Shown here: one piece after another, positions 894-32,600 of the stretch | Position numbering within the stretch: the first letter of the stretch is position 1 | Layout of the letters: the number at the start of each line of letters is the position of its first letter | Notes under the pieces: generated by a model | Told to the model about the DNA's origin: nothing | The model's database searches: none | Seen by the model: only the letters and a program-made list of their open reading frames with translations | Assembly (NCBI GenBank): GCA_003990765.1 | Contig: RBNJ01000305.1 | Location: forward strand, 1-33,604 | From: Jimgerdemannia flammicorona | Lineage: Eukaryota | DNA length: 33,604 nucleotides | Direction of reading: 5' to 3' | Translations under genes and position numbers: made by a program

Positions 894-934
894 ACTTTCT
901 TCTGAATAGGTAATTTGTCTTTAAAACATCCTAT

Positions 935-3488: not shown

Positions 3489-3936
3489 TATAATATAATC
3501 TCAAAAGTATGATAGATTTCTATATCTTGAAACTTAATCTTGTTCTGACTTTTACAGAGTTCTCAGAGTATATGGATGTGAGTTTGAAGTATATCTGTCT
3601 GTAGACTTATTAGTTCTTTTGCTTTCTCTTTGCTTTAAACTATTTCAATCTGAGGTTTATTCACTCTAAATACTGAAATATTTATATAAGTTTACTAGCT
3701 ATAGAGTGACTAAGTTATGACTATGTTATATTTTCTATAAGTTACATTTTAAAAATATTAAATCTTTTGATATCTGTCAGAATTTTGATAATAGTAAAGA
3801 TTTTAACATCTGTAGAATCTTAATAATAGTTAAAGTTTTTATATTCCTGAAATAACTGTTATTTGTAAGACTATACTATATTTGAAAATTAGATTCAGAT
3901 ACTATGATCAAATGTTTATTTTTCTAATTTATATTA
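3489..3936 (-). repeat. 5' LTR of family A copy 1 (outer end eroded)
   Basis: Direct repeat of 414-871; followed on the minus strand by atttggtatctattagctag, a decayed version of the PBS at 23137. Confidence 0.85.
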
Positions 3937-4125: not shown

Positions 4126-4644
4126 AGAATTAGATCACTTCTGTTTAATATAAGAGAAATATTTAAAATTTCAACAATTTTATCATTATTATCTAATTCA
4201 ATATTTATCTATAGTTTGCAAACTAATTTATCAATCTTCAAAGAGTTAATATATTCTTAAAATTTATTAATTATACTAAGCTATTTTATATAAATCTTTT
4301 TATACTTTTTTTTATTGAATTTTTTTTTTTTACAAAACTTCTAATTAAGTGATAAATTCAAGTTATAATTATATAATATAAGTAAATATATATTAAATAA
4401 TTTTATATTATTAAGTATAGTAATTTATATATTAGTTATATTGAAATATATTTTATATACTAAGATTTTTTTTTAAAGAATACAAAATAGAGAGATTACT
4501 TTATATATATAATTACTGTAAAATATCTTATTGAGCTCACTATTCTCATCTTTTAGATAGATAAAATTGGTTTGAATTTATAAATATTCAATATTCTGAT
4601 AAATATATAAAGATCTTTTAAAGTAATTGATTCTTATTAGTTAA

Positions 4645-5130
4645 TATAATAAAACTATATACTGATATAATTAATATATTACAGATAATTAAGATAACTA
4701 TTAGCCCTAAATTCTGAGTCTTTGTAAGAAAGCACTGAGTTCCAATTGTCTATTACAGTAGTATAGTCTAAGTATTGCTTTTAGGTTCTTATATTAATAA
4801 AAATGCCATACTTGTATCTTAAGTTGATCAGACTCAGAATTATTAATAAGTTAGATCTGAGAGTTCTATAATAAGAATACTAATTTATTCTTACATTTGA
4901 AAAAAGTAGAGCTGAGGTTACAATATACTCAGTATAGAGAATATTTATATAAGTTTAGAGCTATAACTAAATATAGTATAGTAGATATATTTATATATAG
5001 TTATACTATATATATTTAGTATCTATAACTATTAGTTGAAAATTTTATAGAAATTTTTATCAGAATTTCCATCAGAATTTCCATCAGAAATTATAGTAGC
5101 TTATAGATATATATATAATAATTTATTATA
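4645..5130 (-). repeat. 3' LTR of element B
   Basis: Direct repeat of 20701-21150; internal 12-bp tandem (cagaatttccat). Confidence 0.9.
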
Positions 5131-5375
5131 TCTATCTTTTCTTTATCTAAACCTACTTATTAGATTTAGTACTAAACTCTAGATATGTATCAAACTAAAG
5201 GACAGTATACTAAACTACTTAAAAGACAATATTACTCAATCATATATTTTTCTAGTAATATTTGGGTTATATAAACTTCTAGCAATACTCAAGATATTGT
5301 TTTTAAAGAATAGATACTAGTAACATAATAACTGATAAGTATTCTGAAGTATATATTAGGCAGGGCAGCCCTAAC

Positions 5376-7262: not shown

Positions 7263-10200
7263 ATGAACAATATAACTAGAATCTTATCTTTGAATATGAG
7301 AAGCAGTGAGATATTGAAATATCTTTGGATAGCTGAAGGAGATAGAAGCAGATTTGTTTCTACTACAGAATATTAGATATAATAGGGACTTAGATATTCT
7401 GGACTAGATAAAGGAATGGGGTGATATGACTGTTTGGTAAGAATGTGTAGACATTCTGGTTAGGAAGAGAAAGGGGGATATTGGAGACATTGGACATTGA
7501 GGGAGTAGAGTAGTGTGGGGAGTTTGGAAGAGACCAGGCTAGAGACCCTTAATGGTTGGGTTATGTTATTGTCCAGTGGAAAGGGGAGAGAGAGTGGAAT
7601 GAATTCAAGGGCTACAAGAGTCTGAAGTATTGGTGGAGGTAGGAATTGATTGTCTAGAGGAGAACTTTAATATAATATATAATAGAAAGATAGACAGAAC
7701 TGATGTTAGAAGGGGAATAGTAGATAGAAGTAGTGGTATAAAAGTCTGGGAGGAAGTTGAATGTCTGAGCTCTTTGGTGGATGCTGGGAGGCTTGGATAG
7801 GGGAATCATAAGGTCTTTACCCACTGGGTAGTGGGGCTGGGCTCAAGGATTAACTGGATGTTGACTGCTGATTACTAAAGAGTTGATATCTGGAGAACTT
7901 TGGAAACTGTTTAGTGTCTGTGGTCAGATCACTGGGGTCTTCTAGGAGAGGGGTGTTTTGGGAGAAGTAGAGAGGGGTCTGGACATTGGTGACTGAATAT
8001 CTCTTTACTAGGGGAGGCCTCTTTATAAGAGGCATAGGTGGTAGATATTAGCTCTAGGATTCTTGGTTAGAGAGAAGAGGGGCTGGGAATTAGAGATCAC
8101 TAGATATGATTGAAATCTGAGATGCAATGGTACTGGGGAGAGGTAGGAAGGATGTAGAGTACTCAGAAGAAGAAGTGAGTGAGGTGGGCCTCTCAGAGGT
8201 TGGCAAGGTTGTTGGCAACTTAGGCAGATCTGTTAAATGATAGTGAGAAAGGAGATTGGTAAATACAGTGGATTAGGCTAGAGATGGAGGAGCTGAAGAG
8301 TATACTGAGGCAAGAGGAGGATCTACAGATTAAGGGCATAGTGACCTGGCTATGGTGGCAGAGATTGGAGGAGAGAGAAAGGCCTATCAAGTTTTTGTCA
8401 TAGCTTCTATAGGTGAGGAGAGTATAGCAGTAGTGAGAGGGGGTTTTGGATGAGGCTGGAGAGTTGGTTGTTGGGATACTGGAGATTCTGGACCAGTTGA
8501 GCAGATGGTGGGGACATTTGTAGAGTGAGGAGGATAGAGGGGTGGGGGTGCTGGACATTGATAGGTACCTAGAGGAATGGCACTCTGATCTGACAGCAGG
8601 CTTAGATGATCTTGGTGCTACTGTCTAAGAAGAAGAGATTTAGCAGGTTCTGATGATGGTGAGCTCTGAGACAACACCAGGGGAGGATAGCTTACAGTGG
8701 AATTTTTGGAAGAAGATAGCAGAAGTCAAGTTGATTCTGAAGAAAATGATAGCAATGTGTGATGAAGTAATTGGCTCAGAGACATGGATTGGGGGGCAGA
8801 GCTTGGGTCTTATGGCTCTGCTGTTTAAGAATAAGGAGAGAAGGGAGGAGTGGAAGAACTGGAGGCCAATCATGCTTCTGGATATGGATTGCAAACTAGT
8901 TATAAAGGTATTGGTAGCTAGGCTGCAAGAGGTGGCTCAACAAGTTCTGGAGACTGAGCAGCAAGGATTTGTGAATGGACAGCTGGTTTTCTTCGACCAA
9001 GAGAAGGCCTATGACAGAGTCTGGTGAATGTGGTTGAAAAGAGTACTAAAGTACATTAGAGTTCTCCCTGGGGTCCAGTGGGTCTTGGTCAGTCTGCTAA
9101 AAGAGAGTTGGGCAGCAATCATAGTAAATGGGCATAGAGGGGTTTTATTTCCTCTGAGCAGAGGAGTGCTGCAGGGGGATCCACTGTTATCTATTCTATA
9201 TGCACTATCCCTGGAGCCTCTTTTGGATAGGATATGGCAAAAGGTGGGAGGGTTGGGTATTATGAGGGTTAATTGGAAGGTGGGGGTCTTTGTCAATGAT
9301 ATAGTGGTCAGGCTGGGATTAGCTGAGGATGTTGCAGCACTGAAAGATACAGTAAAGTAGTATAAGGGTACTTGGGTGCTAAGCTCAACTGATATAAGTA
9401 TGAGACTTTGATGTTGAGAGGAGGGATAGTAAGTGAGAATGTGATTGGAATAATTGTCTCTACAGGAAAGGCTGTTCACTATCTGGGGATTTACTTTTTG
9501 ATATATAGCTCTTTGCTACTATGTAAATAGTGAGAGCAGTGGTTGGCAGAGTGGGGAAGCACTCTCTTGGAGTAGAGTGGTTGCTATGTATCTCTGGCAG
9601 AAAGAGTAATAGTATTGAATATATACTAGTTGTCTAAGCTGTAGTATCTGGAGTACCACTTAAACTTTCTAGTATAGATGATCAAGTGATTGTTGAGAAT
9701 GGCCAGAACCTGGATATAGGTAGGGTGATGGAGTCAGATTGGTTGAGAGATATTGATCTGGTCAGTGGATTAGAGAGGTCTGGGTCTGGTGGATTTTCCC
9801 AAGTGTCTTCACTGCTTGAGGGTGGCTGAAGTGAGTGAGTAAGTTGAGGGACAGAGAGTGGGTTCCCCTCATATAGAGGGTATGGGAGGTCTGGTTCTCT
9901 CTCTATGGTATAACTGGGGATCTTCTATCTCTGGTAGCTTTGGAGGAGAGTTAGAGAATATATTATGATGAGGGGTGGTTGATGGGGTATACCATATTGG
10001 TCTCCAATAGAGGAGTGATGAGAGGGAGGAAGAATGGAGACCTCAGATGTAGAGGTGGGACTTCCTTCTGTTGGGTAGAGCACTAGTAGATAACTTCTAC
10101 TTAGAGGATAGCATAGAGTACCTTTGGAAACATGGGAGAGATCTGTAGCCTGAGGTATGACAGGGGGTAGAGATTGAAGAGAAGTGGGACTGGAACAGTA

Positions 10201-10953: not shown

Positions 10954-11077
10954 TGTAATAAATTATTACATACTACCTATAAGCTACTGAAATTTCTGAC
11001 AGAAATTTCCTACAGAAATTTTTACAGAATTTCTGACTAATAGTCATAGTTATTCAAAATAGTATAAACATATATAG
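10954..11077 (+). repeat. 5' part of a B-like LTR, interrupted by family A copy 2
   Basis: tgtaataaattatta... is similar to the reverse complement of ~21020-21150. Confidence 0.75.
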
Positions 11078-11535
11078 TGTAATATAGCAGAACTTAACCT
11101 TGGAAGTATGTTGGGTTTCTGTATCTTGAAAACTTGATCTTCTTTGACTTTGCAGAGTCCTCAGGATATAGGGGTGGATGAGTTTGAAGTATATCTGCCT
11201 GCAGGCTTTACTAGTTTCTTTGCTTTCTCTTTACTTTGAACTATTTTGATCTGAGATTTATTCACTCTAAGATACTGGGGATATTTATACAAGTTTGTGC
11301 ACTGATTCTGCTACTAAATATGTGACTAAGTTATGAGTCATTTCAAAAGTATCAAAATATTTTAATATTGTTAAAATTCTATACTATATCAGGTCTTCAA
11401 TTTTGAATCTTTTGAAATATTTAGAAATTGTTGAAATCAAGGACTACTAACTATAAGGCTATGCTAATTTGGGACTAGTGGTAATTAAGTGTCTATTCCC
11501 TATTTCCTTCTTCTAAATTTAGTTCTACTATCACA
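11078..11535 (-). repeat. 3' LTR of family A copy 2
   Basis: TGTAAT...ATCACA ends; PPT complement acttcctcctga follows. Confidence 0.9.
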
Positions 11536-11572
11536 ACTTCCTCCTGAATAGATGGTCTTATCCCTAAAACAT

Positions 11573-12034
11573 CTATTCAAATTCCCAGGCCTTGACAGTC
11601 TATATGGTCTTATACTGTGTGATCTGTTGTATCACTGTCTCCCAATAGTTTTGCCTTACTAACTTAAAATCAGTAGGAGTTATTTCTCACAAGTGGGCTA
11701 GTACTAGTTCATCATCTTGAAATAACTTATGAATTCTTTTGGTGATGGTGATTTGTGAGTAGGAGAGCTAACACTCTGTGATACAATCATCCTTGGTCAT
11801 TTCTGAGCTCTGGTTGAGTATCTGTCTATATTTGAAGTACTCTTGGAACTCTGTCCAATAATAGTAGACCTTGAAGTGCAAAATTTAAAAGAGATGGATC
11901 TGTATGATACTTTGGATACTATCATAAGATTCTTCTATAGTCAGGGGTTCTGTGGTATTCCATTATCTCTTGATAGCTCTTTGGGCAGTACTAGTGATCT
12001 TGAGTGCTGTTGCTGTATATCAGTTATTAGCTAT
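11573..12034 (-). pseudogene. Accessory ORF3 of family A (decayed, frame intact)
   Basis: 462 nt, same length as 28020-28481, with no indels seen; ATG decayed to ATA. Confidence 0.8.
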
Positions 12035-13206
12035 GGTACTTCTTGAGTCAGTTTTGGTAGATGATAGTGAGGATAATTGTATCTGAGAGTTTTTGTAGCC
12101 AAATGGTGGTCTCTTTTATATCTTGCACAAGATAAGGTCCTTCCCACTTAGGCTCCAGTTTTCATGACTATGAAGCTTCTACCATATTCTGATATATCAG
12201 AACCTTGTCTCCTATCTTGATAATCTTCAGAGGCTTGTGAATCTTTTCTACATTATTTCACTATAGTGCCTGCATCTTGGTTATGTAATCCTTGGCCTTC
12301 TTCCTGATTTGGTATAGTCTCTATATTTCTCCATCCACATATTTCCATACAATATCTCTATTAGATAATGGAGTTTTTTGAGAATCTTCTTCTCTGAAGA
12401 GTATTTTCCAAAGGGTAAAATGGATGCTTTGTGATCAAATATCCTGAAGAGCAGATAATGTTATTGACAGATAGTGATCCTAGTTTTCATAGTTATCACA
12501 GATCTTAGTGATAACATACTTGAGGGTCTTGTTGGTCCTTTCTGCCTATCCATTTCCTTGAGAATGGTATGCTATGGTCCAAATGTACTGGATCTTATAC
12601 TTCTTATAGAGAACCTCAAAGAACTGGTTTGTGAATTCTGTTCCTCTATCTGTGGTTACTTATATTGGGGTCTTGAACTGGCAGATGATTTCTTTGTAAA
12701 GGAAATCAGTAATTGACTATATATTGACTTCCTTGAGGGGTTCTGCCTCTATCTATTTTATAAAAAGATTTACAATGATGATGATGTATCAGTTACCAGT
12801 CAAAGTCAAGGGTAGGGGGCCAATTACATTTATTACCATATGGATGAATAGTACTAGTTTTATGTATACTGATCCTGAAGCTTAATTTCATTGATCTTAT
12901 TTCTATTTCTGGTATTTGTCACAGGTCTTAACAAATTATCTGATATCTTCCTCCATTTATTGTTCTTCTTGCTTTATCATATATGTTTGTTTCTCTTAGA
13001 TGACCAAGTTTATATACTGATTTCATTGCTTACTCCTTCTTATATTCTAGTATAACTAGTAGCTTTCCTTTCTTCAATATTTCTCCATCAGTTTCAAATT
13101 GTTTCCATGTTCTGTTGATAATCATTTGTATCCATTCTTCCAGATATTGGGGTATCTTTCACTGTCCCAGGTAGGTGATGATTCCATAGTAGAGCTTCTT
13201 ATTCAT
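12024..13206 (-). pseudogene. Gypsy integrase remnant
   Basis: Begins MNKKLYYGIITYLG; colinear with 28471-29668. Confidence 0.88.
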
Positions 13207-16200
13207 GATTAATTTGCTGGTTGGGGGTTCTTTAGAGTATCTGTAAGAGGATATCTGCATTAGTATTGGTTTTTCCTGAGTAGTGCATGATAGTTATGTT
13301 ATATACTTGCAACTTTATGATCCATCTGACATAGATTCCTTTATATTACCCTATAGTCAGTAGCTAAGTAAGGGCTGAGTGGTCTGTCTGAATGGTAAAG
13401 TATCTTTTAGCAAGATAGTAGTAGAACTTTTCTACAGCCCAGATGACTGCAAGATATTTCAACTTATAGGATTCATATTCTTTTTTAGCTCCTCAGGTTC
13501 CTCAGCTTAGGTATGTAATAACATACTCTACTTTATCTTTCTTTTGAGCTAGGACCACTCCTAGTCCTTGGGCACTTGCATCTGTCTGCAGGATGAATTC
13601 TTGAGTCTAATTAGGTCTTCTGAGGATAGGTGCCTGGGTCAATCTGACCTTAAGCTCATCAAATGCTTTTTGTTGCCTGCCAGTCCATTGGAACTTAGTA
13701 TTCTTCTCATTGAGTTTGTAGATTGGGTCTGCAATATTGGAGAATCCTCTGATAAATCAGTGGTAGTATGAGGTAAGTCCCATGAAGACTTGGGCTTTGG
13801 TAACTATAGTGGGCCTTGGGTATGCTGCTACTGCTTGAATCTTGAGAGAGTATGTATGTGTTCTGTCTCAATTAATGATATGGCCAAGATAGATGATCTT
13901 GATTTCTGTAAACTTGCACTTCTAGGACTTGATATAAAGACCATGCTGTCTCAGCTTCTTTATTATCTACTGGATATACTGCAGATGTTCCTCAGCTGTC
14001 TTGCTGTAGATGATAATATCATCTATATAAATCATCATCCATCTTTCCATATTATAGCAGAAGATTTTATTCATTATTCATTGAAAGCTTGCAGGGGCAT
14101 TATATATTCTAAATGATATTCACAGATAGATGTAGGTTCTGTCTAGGGTGATGAAGGCTGATTTCTCACTTGCTGTTTCTGTGAGTCCAATTTGGTGGAA
14201 TCCTGAGTATAGATCCAAGGTGCTGTAGTACTGTACTTCATCTCCCAGAGTTATAAGGATGTCATTGATGAGGGGCAGTAATTGGCAATCCTTCTTGGTG
14301 ACTATGTTGAGCTTTCTGTAATCAATGCAGAGTCTTGGGATGAATTCTCCAGACTTGTTTCTTTTCTTTAGGACTAGTATAACTGGTGAAGACCAGGGGC
14401 TGCTGGTCTCCTTGATGATACTAGCTTCTTTCATTTGCTTGATTTCTTCTCTGAGTCACTCTCAGTAGACTGGTGGGACAGGTCTTACCTTCTGGTAAAT
14501 TGGTTCAGTATCTCCAGTATCTATATTATGATAGTAGTGTGGAGTCTTTTCTTTGATATTCTTGAAGTCTGTAGCGAGAACATCTTTAAATTTGTGCAGT
14601 ATTTTCTTGAGCTCTATCTTAAGTGGGAATTCATTTCCAATAGTATAGCTATACCTATTCATAGTTTCCTCCTTTTTGTACTGCAGCTCAGTGATTTTGG
14701 TATTAGCAAATACTCCTCTTCCTATAGATCAGAATCCTTTTCTTTCTCTTTCTGATTTCTTCAACTTCTTGACTTCTAAAATTCTTGGCTGAAGAATTGG
14801 GAAGATCAACATCTGTGCCAGTTAGTCCTTCTTCTTGATTGGGAATGAGATCATAGGTTCCTAGCAATAAGTAGTATTTCTCCAATATAATTTGAATCAA
14901 TGACTTCTTCTTCAATTGTGATTTCACTCCTAGCTAGGCTGCTTCTTGTCTTGAGGATCCCAACATGGTTCTTTGGAATAGTCATCTCCAGATCAGTTGC
15001 AAGTAGGGTGGTTGTCTGAGGTTTGAGTATAGTTTTCTCTACTATGGCAATATCTATTCTGGCTGCATTTTCTGACTTATATTCTGGTAAGACTGTATCA
15101 GGATGAATTTTCTGAATCTTGATCTTAATTTTCTCTTCATCATCACTATCTTCAAAGAGTGCTAGTGGTTTGTCATCCTCTTCTTCTTTCATTTTCTTTT
15201 CTTCTCTTATCTGTTTCTCAAGGGCCTTCTCTCTTCTTTGATGGTAGATCTCCTTGATTTTGCTGGTACACTGATAATACTCATTGATATGCTCTGTATA
15301 GTACATTTAGATCCCTTGGGGGCAGACTCCTTATAGTGCATATCCTCCTATAATCTTCTTGCACCAGTCTTCTTCACTCATCCATCTGATTTTCTTCTTC
15401 TTTTTCTGAGTTGTCACCATGTAGGCTTCTTCTTGTTCACTCTTTTCTTTCTTCATCTTGGGTAGGACTCCTTTGTTGATATTGATAGAAATTCACATCT
15501 TCTGTCTATAATATATGATCTGCATCTTCTGAGCATTCAGATCAATTACTGCCTTGGCTTTGTGAAGTCATTGATTGCCAATGAGGATGTCATAGTTGAT
15601 TGCATTGGTCACAATTACATCTACTGAGATAGTTGCTTCTCCAAACTTAATGGGAATATCTTGGATCTTTCCCAGAGGTGTGGCTCTTATACCATCTGCT
15701 GTAATGAACACCAATTTGGTTACTTCTTCAACTTTCCAACCTAGGTGGTCTACTGCTTTCTTGCTGAGGAGGCATCTTCCTACTCCTGTATCAATAATAG
15801 TCTCAAAGACTCTATCCTTGATTTGACAGGTTACATAGGCAGAGATCTTACAGTTATCTTTGCTTTCTTATCCTGAGTCCTCTTGAACATTATTGGCCTC
15901 AGTTATCTTCCATCCTTACTATTTGGTTGTTTCAGTAAGTCCAAACCTTATTTGCTATCTGAATGTAGGTATTTCTGCTAGCTGGCCAAAGATTGTATTG
16001 ACCTTTTGTTGACTGAGATTCTTGAAGATATCATACTTGAAGGTCTTGGTTTTGCAAAGCTTTTTCTCCTTTTCTCCTTCACTGACTATAGCGGTTCCTT
16101 AGATGATATCTTGAATAACCTATTCTAGCTCCATATCTTGATCTGTTTCTTCACCTTGACTTTCTGTAGTAGTCTCCATCTGCTTCTTCACTGGGTTCTT

Positions 16201-16279
16201 CTTGGGTCTTTCTGGTGGTCTCTTGTAGAGTTTTTTGTAGATATTCTTCTTAGTGGTCTATGCAGGATAGGTCTCTCAC
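13199..16279 (-). pseudogene. gag C-terminus-protease-dUTPase-RT-RNase H remnant
   Basis: SSPWSSPVILV...RLCIDYRKLN, LDLYSGFHQI (14120-14434); ILKTRSSLA...VIDSNYIGEI (14851-15306). Confidence 0.9.
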
Positions 16280-16626
16280 TACTTCCAAATAAATTGAATC
16301 AATTTGAAATTAAATCAAATTGAGAGTTATTCAAATTGAATTAAATTGAGAATTTTTCAATTTAAATCAAGTTTGAATCAAATCGAATTTGAATCAAATT
16401 GAGGATCTGATTCAAATACTATTTTCAAAATATAATAACTTGATGAAAATATGTCTAAATTTAATAGTTTTTAGCTTATTAAATTCCTCTTATATAGAGG
16501 AATCTTATAAGCTAAAGATTATTAAATTTGGATATATTTTTATTGAGTTATTATATTTCAAAAAATAGAGTTTGAATCAAATCTCAAATTAAATTAGACC
16601 TTTAATTTGATTCATTGGGAGTACTA
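16280..16626. mobile_element. Foldback MITE, hAT-like (copy 2), left terminus clipped
   Basis: Right end ...gggagtacta; long inverted arms centred near 16490 (ttagcttat...attcctct / agaggaat...ataagctaa); homologous to 94-401. Confidence 0.8.
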
Positions 16627-16639
16627 TAGTAGATAATCT

Positions 16640-17541
16640 TTATATAGTACAAATGGGGTTTTTATATGATTTCTGTATAACAATCTCTATATAGTATAAG
16701 TAAATTTCTTATGTAATTTCTATATAACAATCTTATTTCTAAAAGTATATAATTTCTATATAATAATCTTATTCATAATATAAGTAATTGATGGTATTCC
16801 TTAATAAGCAGTTTTTGATAGATAATTTGGATAACTCAGATGGTACAGATTCTTCCTTAATCAGTAGACTTTTCTGATTGACAAAGTTGTATTAAAAACT
16901 ACTTCATTTATATGAGATTATATTGAGAGACTAGCTTTACTATAAAGGTACATCTTATTTTAGACTGACCTTATAAGGCAGACTTCTTGGGTAAAGTTAT
17001 ATCAAAGACTGACTTCATCTATATAAATATGAGTTTACTATAAAGTTATATCAAATAGACTAACTTTGTAGCAAGATGGCAGATGGGTTCTTAATGATAG
17101 CTTTTCCTTAAGTAGTATATTACTCAAATAATAGTAAAGTTTTTCACTTGAACTTTTGGTAAATTTCTCAGACTTTATATTAGAAAGTAAACTAGAGTGA
17201 AAAATAGCTCACAACTTCTTAGTAATAGCTTATTGGTAGGTTTCTCCTTCTAAGTATATTAGATAATTAGCTTTCGCTTTTGATTTTTGAACTGAGGTTT
17301 ATTCACTCTTATCTCTGAAATATTTTATATAAATTGGTTGCTATGTATATAGTTACTATCTGGCTAAGTATAGATATTACAGATATTTACTATTCAGTAG
17401 ATATTAACTATCTAGTAGACATCTACTGTCTGGCAGACATTCACTGTCTGTTTTTCTTTTTATACTATCTAGTTATTTATACAATTTGGTAACTGTGATA
17501 TTTATATTATCTGATTATACTATACTATTTCACATATTATA
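16640..17541 (-). repeat. LTR-like fragment (family C) plus degenerate tandem repeats
   Basis: Minus strand starts TATAAT at 17541; TATA followed by gaataaacctcag (~17285-17332) resembles family A R region; imperfect repeats (tttctatataacaatct x3; taaagttatatcaaa..gact) in 16660-17070. Confidence 0.5.
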
Positions 17542-20600: not shown

Positions 20601-20700
20601 CTGATAATATTGATAATATTAACTAAGTTGTCTATATTTATAGTAGACTTCTTAAAGAAAGCTTGCTTATGAGTGAGAGTAACTTCTACTATTACTAAAT

Positions 20701-21150
20701 TATAAGAAAACTATATACTGATAGAATTAATATATTACAGATAATTAAGATAACTATCAGCTTTAAGTTCTGAGTTCTTATGAGGAAGTACTGAGTTCCA
20801 ATTGTCTGTTATAGTAGTATAGTCTAAGTATCACTTTTGGATTGTTGTATTGATAAAAGTACTATACTTATATTCCAAGTTAATCGGGCTTAGAATTATT
20901 AACAAGTTAGATTTGAGAGTTCTATAATAAGAATATTACTTTATTCTTATATTTCAAGAAAGAGAAGCTGATATAAGTTTAGAGCTATAGCTAAATATAT
21001 TATACTAGATATGTCTATATATAGTTATATATACTATATTCAGTATCTATAACTATTAGTTGAAAATTCTATAGAAATTTTTATTAGAATTTTCATCAGA
21101 ATTTCTATTAGAAATTTTAGTAGCTTATAGATATATAATAATTTATTACA
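20701..21150 (-). repeat. 5' LTR of element B
   Basis: Minus strand starts TGTAATAAAT; repeat of 4645-5130 with a ~30-bp deletion. Confidence 0.9.
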
Positions 21151-21233
21151 GTTAATATTATAATGGTTAATTAAATTAGGGACTATAATTAAAAGATAGA
21201 TATTTGGTCATAGTACCTAAATTTGATTTCTAA

Positions 21234-21534
21234 TATAATATAGTATTATACTTAGCAGTTATATAATCTCACAGTTGGATAATTTATACAATTATACAAC
21301 TGTATGAAATTTACAATTATATGGATTGTACAGATATATAGATCTCACAACTATATAAAATAACTTACAGAAAAAGAAATCTTAACTTAGCTACTATATA
21401 GTAGTAAACTTATATATAATCTCTATATTTAGAGTAAATAAACCTCAGATCAAAATAGTTTAAAGCATGAGACAAGAACTAGTAAGCCTGTAGGTAGATA
21501 TACTTCAAACTTATCCACTCCTATATCTGAGTAT
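21234..21534 (+). repeat. Family A-related LTR fragment, interrupted
   Basis: 21400-21534 (aataaacctcagatcaaaatagtttaaagc...gatatacttcaaact) matches the reverse complement of family A LTRs; the upstream part does not. Confidence 0.75.
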
Positions 21535-21626
21535 TGTAGAATACTTGGGAAGAGTAGAGAGAAGAAAACAGTAATTATTTATTGATAGCTTATATACTTT
21601 TATATATATTGATGATATTTATATAA
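21535..21626 (-). repeat. Probable end fragment of another LTR
   Basis: Begins TGTAG exactly where the A-like LTR breaks; TATA-like and AATAAA on the minus strand. Confidence 0.35.
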
Positions 21627-21931
21627 TGTAATGGTGACCTCAGAATGATGACATCAGCACAGGAGACAGCCTTTCCTTGCAAGCCACCAGATCAAAGCAC
21701 AAGAAGATCATATGGCATACAAGATGAGCAATGATGACCAACTGTGAGTCATTGTGACCACAGCATAAGTATCCTAAAGAATATAAAAGAAGGATCAAGG
21801 AACTGCAGTAGCAGCAACCAACAAGAACCACCAATCCCAAAATAACTCAAAGACTTACCACAAATGAAATACCTGCTGCCCACCAAACCTCAAGATCAAG
21901 GAACCACCAAGGTATCTCAGTCGAGGAAAGG

Positions 21932-22723
21932 ATGTTCCAAGACATCAGAAGAGCCATGGGGACCCGCTCAAGAAGGACTCCTAGTGTCAACCTGGGTACT
22001 GCAGACCTCTATCACTTCATTCTCTACTGCCGCAAAATGGAAACAAGGATCACCATTGCCACTAAATGCCTCCAAATGTGGCAGGAATACGAAATAGGAA
22101 ACCTCCTCTACCAGGAGTTCCCACAGGCCAGCCCTCAAGAGCTACAAGATGCCACTCCCATGGACCTATGTAAGGTAAGAACAGCAAAGAAGATCTATCA
22201 GATCTTCAGGCATGCACCATGGTTGATCCCCAACTTGGAGTATGTTAGAGTCTCAGACTTCAGAGATCTGTCATCCCACCATATCAATGCACTAGAAGCC
22301 AGGGTAGCTGCAGAAACCCAGTCCACTATCACCCTCAATAGTGAAGAAGTAGAAGACTTCTGGCACCCTATCCTTCAGGACAACCCAGACCAATTCCTGC
22401 AAGGATTGATCTCAGTATTCCAAGGCCCAAGCATCCAGGTTAGATCCCCCCAAGACCCCACATTTGTCCCCTATTTTGTGGAAGAGAACCTCATAGACTG
22501 GAGAGCTCCAGATCTTATTCCCGATTTTCCCACCACTGACGAATATGATGACGTCATTGGCGATGACGTCATCCCATGCGACTTCAACATACGTGAGACG
22601 CACGACATACCCGAAGTACGCGAAACGCATGACCTACATGACAAATTCGCGGATCTCATCTCCTTCAGTGATGATGATGATAATGATGATGAAGCCCCCA
22701 TAATCCTGAACTTTCTGCTCTAA
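21932..22723 (+). CDS. 263-aa protein of unknown function inside the LTR; N-terminal half similar to family A ORF3, acidic C-terminal tail
   Basis: Uninterrupted ORF; by-eye match WQEYEIGNLL...TAKKIYQIF...L..V...F..L..HH vs WAEFQEYFKLGQVL...IAKRIHKLF...L..V...F..V..HH. Confidence 0.75.
   Translation: MFQDIRRAMGTRSRRTPSVNLGTADLYHFILYCRKMETRITIATKCLQMWQEYEIGNLLYQEFPQASPQELQDATPMDLCKVRTAKKIYQIFRHAPWLIPNLEYVRVSDFRDLSSHHINALEARVAAETQSTITLNSEEVEDFWHPILQDNPDQFLQGLISVFQGPSIQVRSPQDPTFVPYFVEENLIDWRAPDLIPDFPTTDEYDDVIGDDVIPCDFNIRETHDIPEVRETHDLHDKFADLISFSDDDDNDDEAPIILNFLL
22548..22573. promoter_or_regulatory. Two CRE/ATF-type palindromes (ATGACGTCAT, GATGACGTCATC)
   Basis: Exact TGACGTCA twice, 15 bp apart, ~330 bp upstream of the TATA box. 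Confidence 0.55.
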
Positions 22724-22894
22724 GTTCTTTGTTACACCAGATAATGCCAGCACCGGTATTCTGAGGTGACATGAAATTGTTCCAGCACAGATATTTTGAT
22801 GTGATACTAAATAATGCCAGCCCTGGAACTTAGTAGTTTTAGTTATTGGAATTTATATTTAGCTTTATATCTTAGCAACCATTGAATTATATTT

Positions 22895-22930
22895 TATATA
22901 AATACCCCTCTTATTTCCTCTGAAATAAAG
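22895..22930 (+). promoter_or_regulatory. LTR TATA box and polyadenylation signal
   Basis: tataaata...aataaa, the same arrangement as in family A LTRs. Confidence 0.6.
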
Positions 22931-23136
22931 TCAGTTTCTCTCAGTGCAATACACAATCTCTTGCAAACAATCTAAGAGATAACAAGATAGTTAAAGATAA
23001 GAAGTTTGAGGACTATAAGACCTTGGAAAGGCACTCCAATAAGAACTTGCTTATAACAACTTGAGTTAGTCTAAGAGATATACCTTGAAGAGAATCTGGC
23101 ATATTTGAAGGACTCAGCGACTACTACATGACAACT

Positions 23137-23153
23137 TGGTGCCCATTGGCTGG
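23137..23153 (+). other. Primer-binding site TGGTGCCCATTGGCTGG (tRNA not identified)
   Basis: TGG 3 nt after the LTR CA end; decayed equivalent at 3469-3485 in A copy 1. Confidence 0.75.
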
Positions 23154-23253
23154 TGATTCAAGACAAATCCCTCACTTTCAAGCTGAAAAATGAACAACCC
23201 CCACAACAACTACCCTGACTACAAGAGTCACCCCTGCAAGAATTCAAGACAAG

Positions 23254-26200
23254 ATGGAAATGTGTCCCCCCACATTCTATGGATATACTACTGAAGAGTC
23301 AATCCTGACCTTCATTGAAGACTTTGAACAATTCGCTGCCATACGAGCTCTTGGTGTGGATGCTCAATTGGCCCTTCTACCAGTCAGCCTTAGAGGACCT
23401 GCCAGAGACAAGTTCAATGCAGCCACTATTGCTGGTGCTGATGCAGTCAAACTTGCCAACATGAAGGTCTTCCTCAGAACAACATATTATATCAAAGAGA
23501 TCAAACAAGCTCTCAAGGATCAACTCAATACTATCTGCCAGGGACTTAGTGAAGATCCCAACTCATTCTATATCCGAATTTGCCACCAGATTGTCTTGGC
23601 TGGCTATGATGATGCCCTCAAGGAACAAATAGTGGATTCAACCTTCCTCAAAGGAGTTCACCCCGAAATTGTCCTAGCAATCTGGTCTACCCCAGCTGCA
23701 CTGACCCTTGATCAGAAAGTGGTCTTTGCGCAGAGATATTAGACTGCCAGACATCCTGCTGAACACTCAATGGAGAAAATAACTGGTATCAAGATGGAGC
23801 CATCAAAGCCAACTAGCATCCTACCTGCCACAGTTGTAAACAGACAACCAACCTCACCTACCCCCAAGATAGCCAAAGCTGACCCAGTGGAAGAACTCAC
23901 CAAGCAGTTTGCCAAGATGACTGCACACCTTGGTGATGTTGTTAGAGAAGTCCAAAGCACCAACAGGAGACCAGTGCAGAGATTTGCAGCTGCTACAGAA
24001 GAATGCAATAACATCACATGCTTCAGATGTGGAGAAGAAGGCCACTATGCAAAGAGTTGCATGACTGAAACAAGACACAAAGCCCAACCAAGCAATGCTA
24101 GCAGAACCAGAGAACAAACCAATGCAGTAGTCATTGAGGAGATTGGTGACACTGATGAAGAGTATTATGAGGAGCTTGAATTCTACCCTGCTACTGAAGG
24201 TACCAGAACCCAGTCCAAGCCCTATGACAAGAAGAGCAATAGCAAGCCAGTTGGAAGACCAAAGAAGACCCCAGCTGTCACTATTCAAAGCAAGACCCAA
24301 CCTGAGGAGATTGATCAAGACATGGAGTTAGACGAAGCTGTCTACCAAATTATTGAAGGCACTACTCCAGTCTCAGGAGAAAGTGAAAGCAAGGAGGAAC
24401 AAGAATCAGACATCACCCTCAAGGTCAAGAAGTTTCACCCTGAAGCCAAGATCCCAGAATACAAGACTGAAGGAGTCATAGGAATGGACCTTGCCAGCAT
24501 TCAAGATGCTACCCTTGAACCACAGACCACCACCCTACTTGGCACTGGAATTAGAGTCAAGCTGCCAGAAAACCATGCCAGAATCATCAAGACCAGAAGC
24601 AGTCTGGCCAAAAGCGAAATCTCAGTTGAAGGAGGAGTAATTGACCCTGATTACACTGGCGAGATCTTTCTCATAGTCAGAAATCAGAACCACACCACCC
24701 CCTTCGAAGTCAAGAAGCATGACAGGATTGGCCAGATGCTGATCCATGAAGTCAAGAAGCCCAAGATCATAGAAGCCATCGAACTCATCAAGACCAAGAG
24801 AGGAGAACAAGGCTTTGGATCTACTGGAAGAGGAGCCTATGCTGCCACTAAGCTTACTGAGCTTGAGTATAAGAAAGACAAGGACCAGAACAAGCACACA
24901 TATACCATTGGAGAAAACTTTCCCCTGGAGGAACAACTTCTCAAGATCCTGCACCAGAATGAAGGAGTACTTGCTACAGACTTTAGGGATATCCACAATC
25001 AAGAACCCAAGTACTACCATGAAGTTGACACAGGTGATACCAAGCCTATCTACCAGAAAGCCAGACCCATACCACCTGCCTACAGAGAGTGGCTGCGAGC
25101 TGAACTCAAGGAAATGGAGGAAGCCGGAATCATCAAGCAAGCTATCAGCCCCTGGGCCTCACCCATTGTCCTAGCCCCGAAGAAAGGAAGCAAGCCTGGA
25201 GAGTTTGCACCAAGACTCTGCATTGACTACAGGAAGCTCAATGCCATCATCAAGAAGGATAGGCAGCTCTTGCTGAATATTCAAGAAATCCTTACCACTC
25301 TTGGAAGTAAAGCCAAATACTACACTACCTTGGATCTGTTCTCAGGCTTCCATTAGATCGGTCTCACTCAAAATGTTAGTGAGAAATCTGCCTTCATCAC
25401 ACCTGATGCCACCTATATCTACTTGCAAATGCCATTTGGAATGTGCAATGCCCCAGCAAGTTTCCAGCGAATGATGAACAGAGTCTTCAGCAATGAGATT
25501 GGAAAATGGCTCTTTGTCTATGTTGATGATATGATCATCTTCAGCAATACTGCATGGGAACATATCAATCACATACAGCTAGTCCTCAAGAAACTCAAGG
25601 AGCATGGCCTCTACATCAAGTCCAAGAAATGTAAGTTTGCAGCTCAAGAAATCGCCTACCTAGGACACCTCATCAACCAGACTGGAATCCACACAGACCC
25701 CATGAAGATCGAGGCTGTTGCAGCCTACCCGAGACCTAGAACAACCACAGAAGTCCACGCCTTCCTTGGACTGGCCAGCTACTACAGAAGATTCATCAAA
25801 GAATACTCCAACATTGCAGCACCTATCTACGAGCTACTGAAGAAGGAGACCAAATTCGAATGGACCAAGGAGTGTCAAGAAACCTTCAATGAACTCAAGA
25901 CCAGGTTGACCCAAGTACCCATCCTTAGAAGACTAGACTGGAACCTAGAATTCATCCTGCAGACAGATGCAAGTGCTATAGGACTTGGAGCAGTCCTAGC
26001 TCAGAAGAAAGATGGACATGAATATGTCATCTCCTATGCAAGCTGAGATACCTGCAGAGCAGAACAGAACTACGAGTCATGCAAGCTTGAATGCTTAGCA
26101 GTGGTCTGGGTGGTAGACAAGTTCCACTACTACCTAGCTGGGAAACACTTCACCATTCAAACAGACCATTCTGCTCTTGCCTGGCTATTCCATACTCTGA

Positions 26201-26349
26201 ACCCCAAAGGAATATATGCCAGATAGATCTACAGGCTGCAAGAGTATGACTGTACTATCAAGTACCACTCAGGAAAGACCAACACCAATGCTGATGCACT
26301 CTTGAGGACACCCCGAAACACCCCCATCAAGACTATTCAACATGAATAA
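23254..26349 (+). pseudogene. Single-frame gag-dUTPase-RT-RNase H polyprotein (protease missing; four premature stops)
   Basis: ORFs 23254, 23770 and 25423 are in frame; CFRCGEEGHYAKSC knuckle; RLCIDYRKLN, MPFG, YVDD, TDAS, TDH, ADAL; stops at 23740, 25354, 26044 and 26224 are single transitions. Confidence 0.95.
24418..24828 (+). other. Trimeric-type dUTPase domain
   Basis: All five motifs present: GMDL, RSSLA, GGVIDPDYTGEI, DRIGQML, RGEQGFGSTG. Confidence 0.95.
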
Positions 26350-27508
26350 GGGGCTATACTACATATGGATTAATCAGCTACCTTGGGCAGCAGAAGATGC
26401 CCAACCACCTCGAACCCTGGACAATCACCATCATCAACTGGACTTGGAAACAGTTTGAATTAGACAACACTACACTCAGAAAAGGAGGAAAGCTAGTAAT
26501 ACCTTAACACAAGAAGTATCAAGTAATGAAGGAAGTATATGAGCAAGGATACTTAAGAGAAACCAACACATACGACAAGACAAGAAGAACTATGTGGTGG
26601 CCCAAGATAGAAGAAGACCTGTGCCAATTTGTCAAAGGGTGTGATAAGTGCCAAAAACAGAAATAAGATCAGTAAGACCAGGCACCTGGATCACCAAGAA
26701 TTGAGCCTATCCCCTTCTACTACATTGCAATGGATATCATTGGACCACTACCAGTAACACTATCAGAAAACTACTATATTATAGTTATTGTAGACCTCTT
26801 CACCAAATAGATAGAGGCAGGAGTATTACAAGAAGCCAATGCCCTCTCTATAGCTGATTTCCTACACCGAGAAATCATCTGCTACTACAAGACACCAAAG
26901 CAAATCACAACAGACTGCAGCACAGAATTTGTTAATGGATTCCATGAGATAATGTACCAGAAATACAAGATCCAGCACATCAAGACCACTGTGTACCACC
27001 CTCAAGGAAATGGACAGACAGAGAGAACCAACAAGACCCTCAAGAACATCCTAACAAAGATCTCAGAGACATACGAGAATTGGGATAACTATCTCCCAAC
27101 TGCCCTCTCTGTTCTATGAGACATATGGTCACAGAGCACACATTTTACCCCATAAGAGCTGCTCTTTAGAGAAGAAGATTCTAATGGAACCTCAGCCATA
27201 AATCTAGACCTAACTTAGAGACAGATTGATGCAGAAATCTGGAGACTACACCAAATCAGAAAGAAGGCTGAAGATTACATCACCAAGTTACAAGCACTGA
27301 CAAGAAAGAATGTGGAAAAGAATCACAAGGTTCTAGAACCCATCCAAATTGGAGAAAAGGTTCTACTGTATTGAAATATGGTAGAAGCCTCATGGTCATG
27401 AAAACTGGAGCCCAAATGGGAAAGACCCTTCTACATGTAAGATATCAAGGGAACTACCTTCTGGCTTAGAAAAATCTCAGGGACCATACTGCCTACTATA
27501 GTATATAG
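26342..27508 (+). pseudogene. Integrase of element D (separate frame, decayed)
   Basis: WWP...CDKCQ, MDIIGPLP, VDLFTK, ITTD, YHPQGNGQTERTN, GPY/F-like KLEPKWE. Confidence 0.92.
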
Positions 27509-27982
27509 TGTAATGTAGCGGACGCTTACTCTTGAAAGTACGTCGGATTTCTGTATCTTGAAAACTTAACTATTCTGACTCCCGCAGAGTCTCTTGAAGT
27601 TGTAGGGGAGGGTGGGTGAGTTCGAAGTGTATCTGCTTGCAGGCTTACTAGTTCCTTTACTATCTCTTTGCTTTGAACTATTTCGATCTGAGGTTTATTT
27701 CCTTGAAGATACTGGGTTATTTATACAAGTTTACTAGCTATGAGATGGCTAAGTAATAAATGAGTCATTTGGACTTTGTCGAAATATTTAGACAGTGTCT
27801 AAATACTATACTAAATCGAGATGTTCAATTTGGATAATGTCTAAGAATTTAGACAATGTCTAAGAATTTAGACAATGTCGAAATTGAGGACTGCTAACTA
27901 TAAAGCTATACTACTTTGGGAATGGGTGCGATCAAGTGTCTATTCTCTATTTCCTTCTTCCAAATTTGGCTGTACCATCACA
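27509..27982 (-). repeat. 3' LTR of family A copy 3 (474 bp)
   Basis: Minus strand TGTGATG...CATTACA; TATA and AATAAA at ~27695-27725. Confidence 0.92.
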
Positions 27983-28019: not shown

Positions 28020-28481
28020 CTATTCAAACTCTCAGGCTTCAACTGTCTGTATGGTCTTATACTGTGCAATTTGCTGTATGATTGTTTCCCAATGATGTCT
28101 TCTCACTTTCTCGAAGTTGGTGGGGGTTACTCCTCTCAGGTGGTCTATTGCTGGTTCATCTTCTCAGAATAACTTGTGAATTCTTTTGGCGATAGTGATC
28201 TGTGAGTGGGAGAGTTGACACTCAGCAATCCAGTCCTCTTTGGTCTTTGCTGGATCCTGATTGAGCACCTGTCCAAGCTTGAAGTACTCTTGGAATTCTG
28301 CCCAATATTGATAGGCTCTAAAGTGCGAGATCTGAGAGAGATGAGTCTGTACAATATTCTGAATATCCTCATAGTATAGCTCTATGGTCAGAGGCTCAGT
28401 GGTGTGCCATTGTCTTTTGATGGCTCTTTGGGCAGCACTAGTGATCTTGAGTGCCATCACAGTACTTTTGTTACTGGCCAT
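28020..28481 (-). pseudogene. Accessory ORF3 of family A, 153 aa, unknown function (two premature TGA stops)
   Basis: Track ORF 28164-28481 continues past TGA as EDEPAIDHLRGVTPTNFEKVRRHHWETIIQQIAQYKTIQTVEA(W)EFE stop. Confidence 0.85.
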
Positions 28482-29668: not shown

Positions 29669-32600
29669 GATTGATTTGTTAGTTGGAGGTAGTTCAAGGT
29701 GTCCATGAGAGAGCATCTGCATTGGAATTTGTTCTTCTGGGGCAGTGTACGATGGTTACATCATAGGCTTGTAACTTCATTATTCATCTGGCATAGATTC
29801 CCTTGGGTTGTCCAGTTGTCAGTAGCTAGGTGAGAGCTGAGTAGTCTGTCTGGATGGTGAAGTGTCTTCTGGCCAGATAGTAGTGGAACTTTTCCACAGC
29901 CCAGATGACTGCAAGGTATTCCAACTTATAGGACTTGTATTCTTTTTCAGCCCCTCAGGTTCCGTGGCTAAGATATGCAATGACATACTCTTTTTTGTCT
30001 TCTTTTTGAGCTAAGACTGCTCCTAGTCCCTGTGTACTTGCATCTATCTGAAGGATAAATTCTTGGGTCCAATTGGGTCATCTGAGGATGGGTGCCTGAG
30101 TTAGTCTGATCTTGAGTTCATCAAATGCTTTTTGTTGTCTGCTGGTCTACTGGAACTTGGTATCCTTCTTGTTGAGTTTGTAGATTGGACCTGCAATGTT
30201 GGAGAATCCTCTAATGAATCTGCGATAGTAAGAGGTAAGTCCCATGAAGGCTTGGGCTTCTGTGACAGTAGTGGGCCTTGGGTATGCTGCTACTGCTTGT
30301 ATTTTGAGAGGGTCTGTGTGTGTTCCATCTCGATTGATAATATGGCCAAGATAGGAGATCTTGATTTCTACAAACTTGCACTTCTTGGGTTTGATATAAA
30401 GGCCATGTTGTCTTAGTCTCTCCATTATCTACTGTATGTGCTGCAGATGTTCCTCAGGTGTCTTGCTGTAGATGATTATATTATTGACATAGACCATCAT
30501 CCATCTTCCCATGTCATAGCAGAAGATTTTGTTCATCATTCGCTGAAAGCTTGCTGGTGTATTACACATTCCAAATGGCATTCGTAGGTAGATGTAGATT
30601 CCGTCTGGGGTGATGAAGGCTGACTTTTCACTTGCCATTTCTGTGAGTCCGATTTGGTGAAATCCTAAGTATAAGTCCAAGGTGCTGTAGTACTGTGCTT
30701 CATCTCCCAGTGTTATAAGGATGTCACTGATGAGCGGCAGTGGTTGGCAATCCTTCTTGGTAACTGCATTGAGCTTTCTGTAGTTGACACAGAGCCTTGG
30801 GGCAAATTCTCCAGGTTTGCTTCCTTTTTTCGGGGCTAGTACAACTGGTGAAGACCAGGGGCTGCTGGCTTCTTTGATGATGCCGGCTTCTTCCATCTGC
30901 TTGATTTCTTCTCTGAGCTATTCTTGGTAGGCTGGCGGGACAGGTCTTGTCTTCTGATAGATTGATTCAGTATCTCCAGTATCTACCTCATAATAGTAGT
31001 GTGGGGTCTTTCCCTTGATATTCTTGAAATCTGTGGCAAGAACATCCTCGAATTTGTGGAGTATTTTCTTGAGTTCCTCTTTGAGTGGGAATTCATCTCC
31101 AATGGTGTAACTGTGCTTACTTGTGTTTTTCTCCTTCTTATGCTTGAGTTCGGTGATCTTGGTACTGGTGAATACTCCTCTTCCTGTAGATCCAAATCCT
31201 TTCTTTCCTCTTTTCATTTCCTCCAGGTTCTTGACTTCTTTGATTCTTAGCTGTATGATTGGGAAGATCAACATTTGTGCCAATTGGTCCTTCTTCTTGA
31301 CTGGGAATGGAATTGTAGGATTGTGGTTCCTAGCAATGAGTAGAATTTCTCCAGTATAGTCTAAATCAATGACTCCTCCTTTGATTGTGATTTTGCTTCT
31401 AGCCAGGCTGCTTCTTGTCTTGAGAATCCCGACATGATCCTTTGGGATGGTCATCTCTAGTCCAGTTGCGAGTAGGGTGGTTGTCTGGGGTTCGAGTACA
31501 GTTTCTTCTACTGTAGTGATGTTTATTCCGGCTGCGTTTTCTGACTTGTATTCTGGCAAGACTGCATCAGAGTGGATCTTTTAAATCTTGACCTTGATTT
31601 CTTCTTCATCATCACTGTCCTCCAGGAGGGCTGGTGGTTCGTTGTCTTCCTCCTTCTCTTCTTCCTTGATCTGTTTTTTGAGAGCTTTCTGCCTTCTTTC
31701 CTGGTAGATCTTCTTGGTTCCGATGGTGCACTGGTAGCAATCATTGACATGCTCCATACAGTACATCTTGATTCCATGAGGACAGACTCCTTGTGGGGCA
31801 TAGTCTTCTGTGATCTTCTTGCACCATTCTTCTTCACTCATCCATCCAACTTTCTTCTTCTTTGGAGTAGTCACCATATAAGCTTTCTCTTGCTCACTCT
31901 CTTCTTCCTCCATATTGGGCAGGACTCCTTTGTTGACATTGATGGGAATTCGTATCTTCTGTTCCTGATAGGTGATCTGCATCTTCTGAGCATTAAGATC
32001 GATTACCGCCTTGGCTTTGTGAAGCCATTGATTGCTGATGAGGATGTCATAGTTGGTGGCATTGGTTATGATTACATCTACTGAGATTGTTGCTCCTCCG
32101 ATCTTGATAGGAACATCTCAGATCTTTCCCAGAGGTGTGGCTCTTGTGTCATTGGCTGTGACGAATACTAGCTTAGTTGCTTCTTCCACATCCCAACCTA
32201 GGCGATCTGCTGCCTTCTTACTGAGGAGACATCCTCCTGCTCCCATATCAATGATGGCTTCAAAGGTTCTATCTTCGATTTGGCATATTGCATAAGCAGA
32301 GGTTTTGCGATTGTCCTCACTTTCTTCTCCTGAGTCCTCTTGAACATTATTGGCCTCAATTATCTTCCATCCTTGTTCCTTGGTTGTTTTGGCAAGTCCA
32401 AACCTCATTTGCTGTCTGAATATTGGGATTTCTGCGAGCTGACCAAAGGTTGCATTGACCTTTTATTGACTGAGATCCTTGAAGATATCATACTTGAAGG
32501 TCTTGATCTTGCAAAGCTTCTTTTCTTTTTCTTCTTCACTGGCTGGAGTGGTTCCTCAGATGATATCTTGAACTGCTTACTCCAGCTCAATATCTTAGTC

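Follow-up and report, generated by a model that had tools for sequence, protein, structure and literature searches.

Annotation pipelines mask the long terminal repeats (LTRs) of retrotransposons and disregard any open reading frames (ORFs) in them; LTRs are seen as control regions that encode no protein. In retroviruses, genes encoded in, or overlapping, the unique 3' region of the LTR (U3) are known, namely sag of mouse mammary tumour virus (MMTV), lentiviral nef and foamy-virus bet. Additional genes outside the gag-pol set are also described for Gypsy-type retrotransposons. The Gypsy-like elements Juno, Vesta and TelKA of bdelloid rotifers, in the portion of the source that covers them, have the order protease (PR), dUTPase, reverse transcriptase (RT), RNase H (RH) and integrase (IN) and, behind pol, additional ORFs particular to the lineage; dUTPase has also been reported from basidiomycete elements (PMC5408684). 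The rice elements Retrosat2, RIRE3 and RIRE8 are described, in the corresponding excerpt, as having LTRs of more than 3 kb and an orphan ORF0 (PMC3485330). Here we report on a 33,604-nt stretch of Jimgerdemannia flammicorona DNA (contig RBNJ01000305.1; the whole stretch is referred to as the window), in which the segment 21627-23133 (plus strand) is very probably the genuine 1,507-bp 5' LTR of a dUTPase-bearing Ty3/Gypsy element, element D, whose U3 holds a complete accessory gene under selection.

Self-comparison of the window together with Pfam searches revealed a Gypsy family, A, present three times on the minus strand (387-3936, approximately 11078-17358, and 27509 to the window end), and its sister family D, present as a single copy on the plus strand. 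The D LTR starts with TGTAATGG (TGTAATG) at 21627, ends with CATGACA at 23133, and is followed immediately by a primer binding site (PBS) region (ACTTGGTGCCCATTGGCTGG; 23134-23153, plus strand), which is assigned from its position and from its homology to the PBS region of A copy 1; TG…CA termini with a PBS directly after the 5' LTR are as expected of a Ty3/Gypsy element. At the 3' boundary, 23125-23197 matches the LTR-end/PBS junction of A copy 1 (3497-3425) at 78% over 73 nt, and at the 5' boundary the start of the D LTR resembles the A LTR start TGTGATGG. The A LTRs measure 481, 458 and 474 bp, and each of them, on the sense strand, is preceded by a short polypurine tract (PPT; …TATTCAGGAGGAAGT), starts with TGTGATGG or TGTGATAG, and ends with CATTACA.

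The start of the D LTR was located by aligning contigs to 20900-24300; they came from four public runs (X1 to X4), three of soil metagenomes and one of a coded organism. Where contigs of the three soil-metagenome runs begin to match at 21627, the sequence before that point is a polypurine tract (…TTATTCAGGAGGAAG) instead of the window's flank. Seven contigs of X1 gave the loose-end consensus CATTCAAGAAGATCCTTATTCAGGAGGAAG at 21626 with an agreement of 0.99, two contigs of X2 carry the same purine tract at this position, and two contigs of X3 carry a variant of it. The tract is almost identical to the PPT adjoining the 458-481-bp LTRs of family A, and a PPT directly before the 3' LTR is likewise characteristic of Ty3/Gypsy elements, although it is seen here in other copies rather than in the window's own element. 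Because 21627 is preceded by a PPT elsewhere, which is the context of a 3' LTR, and by an unrelated A-like LTR in the window, which is the context of a 5' LTR, this position is the LTR start; and because 21627 is the start of U3 in a 1,507-bp LTR, the ORF at 21932-22723 lies inside U3. An earlier note on this DNA had proposed a gene inside a Gypsy LTR, and the PPT found directly before 21627 in other copies bears this out.

Contig depth in X1, which is not equivalent to copy number, was in keeping with this assignment: summed depth was 1150-1800 over 21698-22495 (the first two thirds of the ORF), 1650-2135 over 22838-23179, 330-820 over gag and 2-7 to the left of 21355, with a dip over the indel-rich tail of the ORF. 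Metagenome cover of the ORF stretch is thus at about the level of the 3' part of the LTR and two to four times that of gag.

The signals inside the LTR are few and are arranged in a simple order. Within 21627-23133, a motif scan found TATAAA only at 21782 and 22897, and AATAAA only at 22924. The second of the two boxes, TATAAATA (22897-22904, plus strand), lines up with the TATA boxes of every A LTR and of L001, a metagenome contig encoding a relative of the ORF, and is taken as the main LTR promoter box; the AATAAA poly(A) signal (22924-22929, plus strand) follows about 20 nt after it and is aligned in D, L001 and the A LTRs. Judging from the position of the TATA box, the border between U3 and the repeat region (R) probably lies near AATAAA at 22924, and about 1.3 kb of the 1,507-bp LTR would be U3. 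The ORF sits entirely between the 5' end of the LTR (21627) and this promoter/R region (TATA at 22897, AATAAA at 22924). Between the ORF stop and the second TATA box (22724-22896) there is neither a purine run of at least 6 nt nor a second LTR start, and blastn at word size 7 found no similarity to the A U3 in 21627-21931 or 22724-22896 and no remnant of an old PPT or LTR start 3' of the ORF. A motif scan also revealed two ATAATGCCAGC motifs (22741 and 22811) in the U3 segment 22730-22821 (plus strand), and contigs of X2, X3 and X4 contain an extra 33-bp tandem copy (joint 22762->22730), so that 22730-22762 looks like a variable repeat in the promoter-proximal U3. The coordinates and motifs reported in the earlier note for the ORF, the TGTAATG terminus at 21627 and the block of TATA box, poly(A) signal, CATGACA and PBS, as well as the lack of a purine tract, were all confirmed.

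Importance attaches here to the alternative that the true D LTR is short (about 400 bp, with its start after 22723), and that 21627-22730 is internal 3' sequence of a tandem truncated D-type element or belongs to a separate element. The sister A LTRs, at 458-481 bp with ORF3 outside, would be compatible with such an arrangement, as would the fact that the window holds no second D LTR (nor any second copy of 21627-23133). However, the PPT stands directly before 21627 in 11 contigs from three runs (7 in X1, 2 in X2 and 2 in X3), no purine run of at least 6 nt and no TG… LTR start follow the ORF, the break in homology in the window falls exactly at the PPT-adjacent base, TGTAATGG resembles the TGTGATGG of family A, and depth over the ORF segment equals that of the 3' part of the LTR and exceeds that of gag. 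L001, whose protein is 61% identical in amino acids, keeps the same order of TATAAAAG, the ORF, about 200 bp, TATAAATACCCCT and AATAAA; this contig, the one relative among 380 pattern matches, is 1,345 bp long and too short to reach an LTR start. A short 3' LTR that excludes the ORF, which was specifically looked for, was not found, and the attribution of 21627-22730 to a separate element, also checked, is countered by the A-like terminus, the missing later PPT, the even cover and the order kept in L001. The short-LTR alternative is thereby largely refuted, and we give it hardly any credence.

Internally, D has the organization of a Ty3/Gypsy element. The region 23194-27508 (plus strand) encodes gag with a CCHC knuckle, a protease region, dUTPase, RT, RNase H and a partial integrase, and the order gag(CCHC)-PR-RT-RNase H-IN on a single strand is that of Ty3/Gypsy (Metaviridae-type) elements. 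Pfam gave matches to zf-CCHC (8e-6), dUTPase (3.2e-26), RVT_1 (5.2e-22) and RT_RNaseH_2 (2.5e-18); the integrase core was weak (0.0066, under the cut-off) and aligns with the A integrase region (Integrase_H2C2, 5.8e-18). In both families the dUTPase domain lies between protease and RT (24442-24828, plus strand, E 3e-26; 31182-31565, minus strand, E 2e-25), and D is 70% identical to A copy 3 in nucleotides over 24514-27498. The 3' LTR of A copy 3 interrupts D near 27498-27508, approximately 10 codons short of the position of A's integrase end and ORF3 start; this junction is a nested insertion that hides the 3' end of D. The expectation of the earlier note that this end should be sought beyond A copy 3 was correct, as D's own 3' end is absent from the window.

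The ORF itself (21932-22723 with the stop codon, plus strand) runs intact from ATG to TAA and encodes 263 aa, and its stop-to-stop frame is open from 21812. A word-indexed search yielded 283 candidates, six of which were relatives at E <= 0.01 with 56-84% local BLASTP identity, and an exhaustive profile search returned 5 representatives among 1.84 billion (1.84e9) proteins. All relatives are encoded on metagenome contigs (those of P0017 and P0019, for instance, are 4,848 and 2,375 nt long). Among the genome contigs, none of 27 pattern matches encodes a relative of the ORF, and a 20-base pattern of the PPT/LTR junction, for which about 2 chance matches are expected by our own estimate, hit four bacterial loci, none of them similar to the ORF, to D DNA or to pol at 23743-25353. 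In viral contigs, 1 of 72 pattern matches covered 28 residues only and was treated as spurious. No fused or longer protein form was found among 830 candidates, which is weak evidence.

Even at 26-39% alignment identity, members of the family have uninterrupted frames, the longest of 342 aa, with indels that preserve the frame, and differences between the ORF and the L001 DNA are distributed over the codon positions as 96/63/128. The ratio of nonsynonymous to synonymous substitution rates (dN/dS) against L001 was 0.22 overall, 0.15 for residues 1-120, 0.13 for residues 121-191 and 0.54 for the tail, values that come from one DNA pair only with a dS of 1.64, near saturation. These data indicate that the ORF is a real gene under purifying selection.

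The protein has three parts. The N-terminal helical domain (residues 1-128; 21932-22315, plus strand) is homologous to the ORF3 of family A; the most conserved core (residues 121-191; 22292-22504, plus strand), recognized from its invariant and near-invariant columns and its dN/dS, is absent from A ORF3; and the acidic, indel-rich tail (residues 197-263; 22520-22720, plus strand), with 22 D+E against 3 K+R, is predicted to be disordered and ends in a conserved LNFLL. Distant members share the near-invariant core and an LNFLL-like C-terminus. With the merged alignment, AlphaFold2 predicted a helical bundle at a predicted local distance difference test (pLDDT) score of 74-88 over residues ~40-140 and scores below 50 after residue 197; a first model from a shallower alignment (pLDDT 38.8) was discarded. 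Pfam at E <= 1 gave no meaningful family match for any of the 11 members, as ATG5_HBR (three members, best E 0.028) and NpmA (one member, 0.026) were treated as noise. Sequence searches of solved structures returned no match for the D family and a single one for ORF3 at E 0.28 (asparaginase), and Foldseek of the second model against the PDB returned none at E <= 0.001. In the wide VIA structure search the second model reached a best Z of 4.4, which is well under the level common for helical bundles and does not imply a novel fold, and in the protein atlas the best score, 0.90, fell in an unnamed cluster with recognition below the guide value.

It is very improbable that the ORF is a decaying or chance frame without function and that its relatives are merely recent copies. 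This view can draw on the lack of any known domain or fold for the protein, on the poor first structure model, and on an ancestral start position that is not a start codon in the window copy; it is opposed by frames that stay open down to 26-38% identity with indels in frame, by dN/dS values of 0.13-0.22 with third-position changes in excess, and by the folded N-terminal domain predicted once the alignment was deepened. The start position in question is the codon at 21869-21871 (plus strand), homologous to the start of more distant relatives (MPA… N-terminus), through which the frame is open here. P0002, P0016, P0017, P0020 and L001 start 21-34 codons upstream of the residue aligned with the first Met of the window copy, the closest of them 21-22 codons upstream.

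The relationship of the protein to A ORF3 was apparent in sequence and in profile comparisons. Intact relatives of ORF3 were recovered as 8 of 8 candidates, all of them 67-75% identical to A ORF3, the full-length form having 153 aa (P0007). In BLASTP, the D protein matched P0007 at E 4e-6 over 109 columns (residues 19-126 against 44-139, 23% identity), and the Smith-Waterman score was 75 against 31±5 for shuffled sequences, none of 2000 of which reached 75. With hhalign, the D family matched the ORF3 profiles at 73.7% (E 2.9e-5), rising to 89.8% (E 1.8e-6, 116 columns) when divergent D-type members were included; such members, e.g. P0018, bridge the D and ORF3 families through motifs shared in the merged alignment. 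When P0007 was compared with the whole window by tblastn, the sole match outside the A copies was 21986-22309 (E 2.7e-4). The D protein itself found no ORF3 by tblastn in the window, because the ORF3 copies there are degenerate. The by-eye alignment of the N-terminal half with ORF3 in the earlier note is accordingly reproduced by BLASTP, and the absence of homology, for which the BLASTP, shuffle, hhalign and tblastn comparisons provided a check, is contradicted by their significance. On the basis of these alignments, the N-terminal ~128 residues are assigned to an ORF3-type domain, with the core and the acidic tail specific to the D type.

With regard to the entry of the gene into U3, A and D hardly differ in the PPT and in the initial bases of the LTR, and this likeness indicates that the boundary motif did not evolve anew but was retained or copied; either the junction motif was kept while the gene crossed the PPT, or it was copied upstream of the gene. 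The earlier note had attributed the arrangement to a PPT shift that moved the gene into the LTR: the position of the gene in the LTR stands, whereas the shift itself is conjectural, the PPT being alike in A and D. The gene could also have been duplicated rather than relocated, with D keeping an ORF3 between integrase and PPT in addition to an extended paralogue in U3. The interval of D in which such an ORF3 would lie is absent from the window, and about 30 nt upstream of the D PPT in other copies resemble the stretch that follows A ORF3, indicating that some post-integrase sequence was kept. Nonetheless, the exhaustive profile search at E <= 0.001 returned only the 5 D-type proteins and no shorter paralogue class, and the ORF3-type proteins found are all 67-75% identical to that of A; since the collections consist of metagenomic fragments, this evidence against duplication is weak, and we consider duplication unlikely.

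With the gene located in U3, reverse transcription, by which both DNA ends receive the stretch bounded by the PPT and the end of R, would give each insertion two copies of the gene, and a solo LTR, by the same replication mechanism, would keep one. A candidate promoter of the gene, TATAAAAG (21782-21789, plus strand), may start a ~1.1-kb mRNA that would end at the LTR's own AATAAA (22924), and such a self-contained LTR unit of promoter, ORF and poly(A) signal is the model we favour, at about even odds. The GAATATAAAAG at 21779-21789 is identical to L001 at 11 of 11 positions even though the surrounding upstream DNA has diverged and includes a 21-nt gap, and the box lies 58-82 nt before the start codon of the family. 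In addition, TGAGTCA was found by motif scan 30 nt upstream of this first TATA box (21745-21751, plus strand); it matches the AP-1/GCN4-type consensus and is a putative factor site.

It is a serious possibility, if somewhat short of an even one, that the U3 gene has no promoter of its own, that it is made only from genomic or spliced subgenomic RNA initiated at the main LTR promoter, and that the upstream TATAAAAG is incidental. MMTV sag is expressed in this manner. In the genomic RNA, the ORF is located downstream of the PPT, and the TATA box is conserved across only two sequences; on the other side stand the perfect match of GAATATAAAAG in a copy whose protein is 61% identical, within diverged surroundings, and its spacing of 58-82 nt from the family's start codon.

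Regarding function, activators are usually built of a folded helical domain with an acidic, hydrophobic and disordered tail. By this analogy the helical domain might bind a partner or nucleic acid, with the acidic/hydrophobic tail serving as an activation or recruitment module, and the protein might then be a trans-acting regulator of the element's own expression, the likeliest role in our view but one held with low confidence. The transactivator or anti-silencing role that the earlier note suggested from the acidic tail is likewise speculative. The wider proposal is that each D-type LTR is an autonomous gene (TATA box, ORF of 263-284 aa, poly(A) signal), such that 5', 3' and solo LTRs would all supply in trans a regulator, either an activator or an anti-silencing factor, and that D would represent a Ty3/Gypsy counterpart of the retroviral U3 genes in which a post-integrase gene has moved across the PPT; we put it forward tentatively, as a possibility that is on balance unlikely.

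Several observations weigh against the reading of 21627-23133 as a full-length LTR with a functional gene in U3, or against parts of it. No loose end at 21626 was present in X4 among the matches listed. The PPT-bearing contigs are short (loose parts with a median of 17-57 nt; records of 141-434 nt among the matches listed), and none was seen to span from the PPT to the ORF, so that the evidence for an ORF in the 3' LTRs consists of the window copy, which is a 5' LTR, the depth profile and the mechanism of reverse transcription. Neither a complete D element with two LTRs and a target-site duplication nor a solo LTR was seen. The window copy may encode an N-terminally shorter protein, or none, since the start codon of its relatives is not kept. 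To these may be added the single, nearly saturated DNA pair behind the dN/dS values, the two sequences behind the conservation of the upstream TATA box, and the lack of support for a protein function from Pfam, solved-structure sequences or fold searches.

Turning to the remainder of the window, the A-like LTR that forms the left flank of D, outside the element (21160-21626, start approximate, plus strand), is 70-82% identical to the A LTRs. Its orientation is opposite to that of the three A copies, no PPT precedes it, and it ends a few bases from the start of the D LTR; the insertion site of D was apparently at, or adjacent to, the 3' edge of another LTR, roughly at the expected PBS position of that element. 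In one X4 contig, 21518 (within the A-like LTR) is fused to 23124, which lies 10 nt short of the end of the D LTR; this contig is most likely an A-type short LTR with a D-like end and PBS rather than a deletion of the D LTR.

In family A, read on the sense strand, the PPT AGGAGGAAGT stands before the 3' LTR of copy 3 (27509-27982, minus strand, 474 bp). ORF3 follows integrase and precedes the PPT, outside the 458-481-bp LTRs, and all three window copies have stops or frame changes: copy 3 (28023-28481, minus strand) contains an in-frame stop and is 76% identical to the intact P0007 by tblastn, and copies 2 (11576-12034) and 1 (938-1381), both on the minus strand, are degenerate. The intact 153-aa A-type relatives in metagenomes (P0007 and others) indicate that the A-type gene is likewise a real conserved orphan.

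Other repeats are present. An AT-rich repeat occurs at 4635-5128 and 20690-21148 (plus strand; 81% identity over ~490 bp); it flanks the region after A copy 1 and the A-like LTR, and an inverted 120-bp piece of it (10954-11077, minus strand) adjoins the 3' LTR of A copy 2. This repeat may represent the LTR of another family or a sequence that such a family prefers as its target. Two palindromic (self-inverted) stretches of ~220-240 bp, at 16374-16614 and 153-374 (arm identity 79% and 70%, respectively), match each other (104-425 against 16308-16649). Fragments of a further retroelement lie on the plus strand at 8644-9357 and 5307-5936, with an RVT_1 match (9.3e-7) and a 210-codon open frame that has no Pfam match. 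The GC content of the window is 36.6%.

A selected protein gene inside the U3 of a Ty3/Gypsy lineage has three consequences: its dosage would double with each insertion, it is linked to the poly(A) signal of the LTR, and it could outlive the element in solo LTRs. If the regulatory proposal were true, a population of solo LTRs could supply the regulator in trans to the whole element family, even after the elements themselves had been deleted. A further outcome is a small orphan protein family, which has no known relatives and whose helical domain is predicted with confidence.

The closest comparison is with family A. A ORF3 and the D gene share ~110 homologous residues and belong to sister dUTPase-bearing Gypsy families that have PPT and LTR termini in common; however, A ORF3 lies upstream of the PPT and outside an LTR of 458-481 bp, whereas the D gene lies downstream of the PPT and inside an LTR of 1,507 bp, is longer by ~110-130 residues (core and acidic tail), and has a candidate TATA box of its own. 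The two families thus offer a natural before-and-after comparison for the entry of an accessory gene into U3, an event that, to our knowledge, has been inferred but never observed for the retroviral U3 genes.

Similar to MMTV sag, nef and bet, the D coding sequence is located in U3 and would hence stand at both ends of the integrated element. There is no sequence or family relationship with Sag, Nef or Bet, as Pfam gave 0 families and no solved structure was matched; the host element, unlike retroviruses, is a Ty3/Gypsy element without env; and D has its whole ORF and a candidate promoter inside U3, whereas nef and bet only overlap it. The acidic viral transactivators, such as foamy-virus Tas/Bel1 and Tax of human T-cell leukaemia virus (HTLV), combine a domain that binds DNA or a factor with an activation domain and activate the LTR; the D protein compares with them by tail composition and disorder only, there being no family match.

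Among Gypsy-type elements, the ORF3s of bdelloid rotifers are a third ORF alongside gag and pol, none of which is placed in the LTR in the portion of the source on these elements, and the types described there (env-like, GDSL, DEDDy, TM and CC) are unrelated to the D protein as far as Pfam shows (PMC5408684). The phrase 'ORFs within the LTRs' in an excerpt of another report (PMC6673714), considered as a precedent, means between the LTRs. In the full-text literature covered in part, subscription journals and Repbase aside, there was no ORF inside the LTR of a non-retroviral LTR retrotransposon, and a precedent may exist. Retrosat2 and D are both Gypsy elements whose LTRs are exceptionally long and which carry an additional orphan ORF that is less constrained than pol, but Retrosat2 ORF0, as the relevant excerpt describes it, lies upstream of gag-pol in the internal region and not in the LTR (PMC3485330). 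Altogether, U3-encoded accessory genes are a known kind of gene, represented here in a Ty3/Gypsy element.

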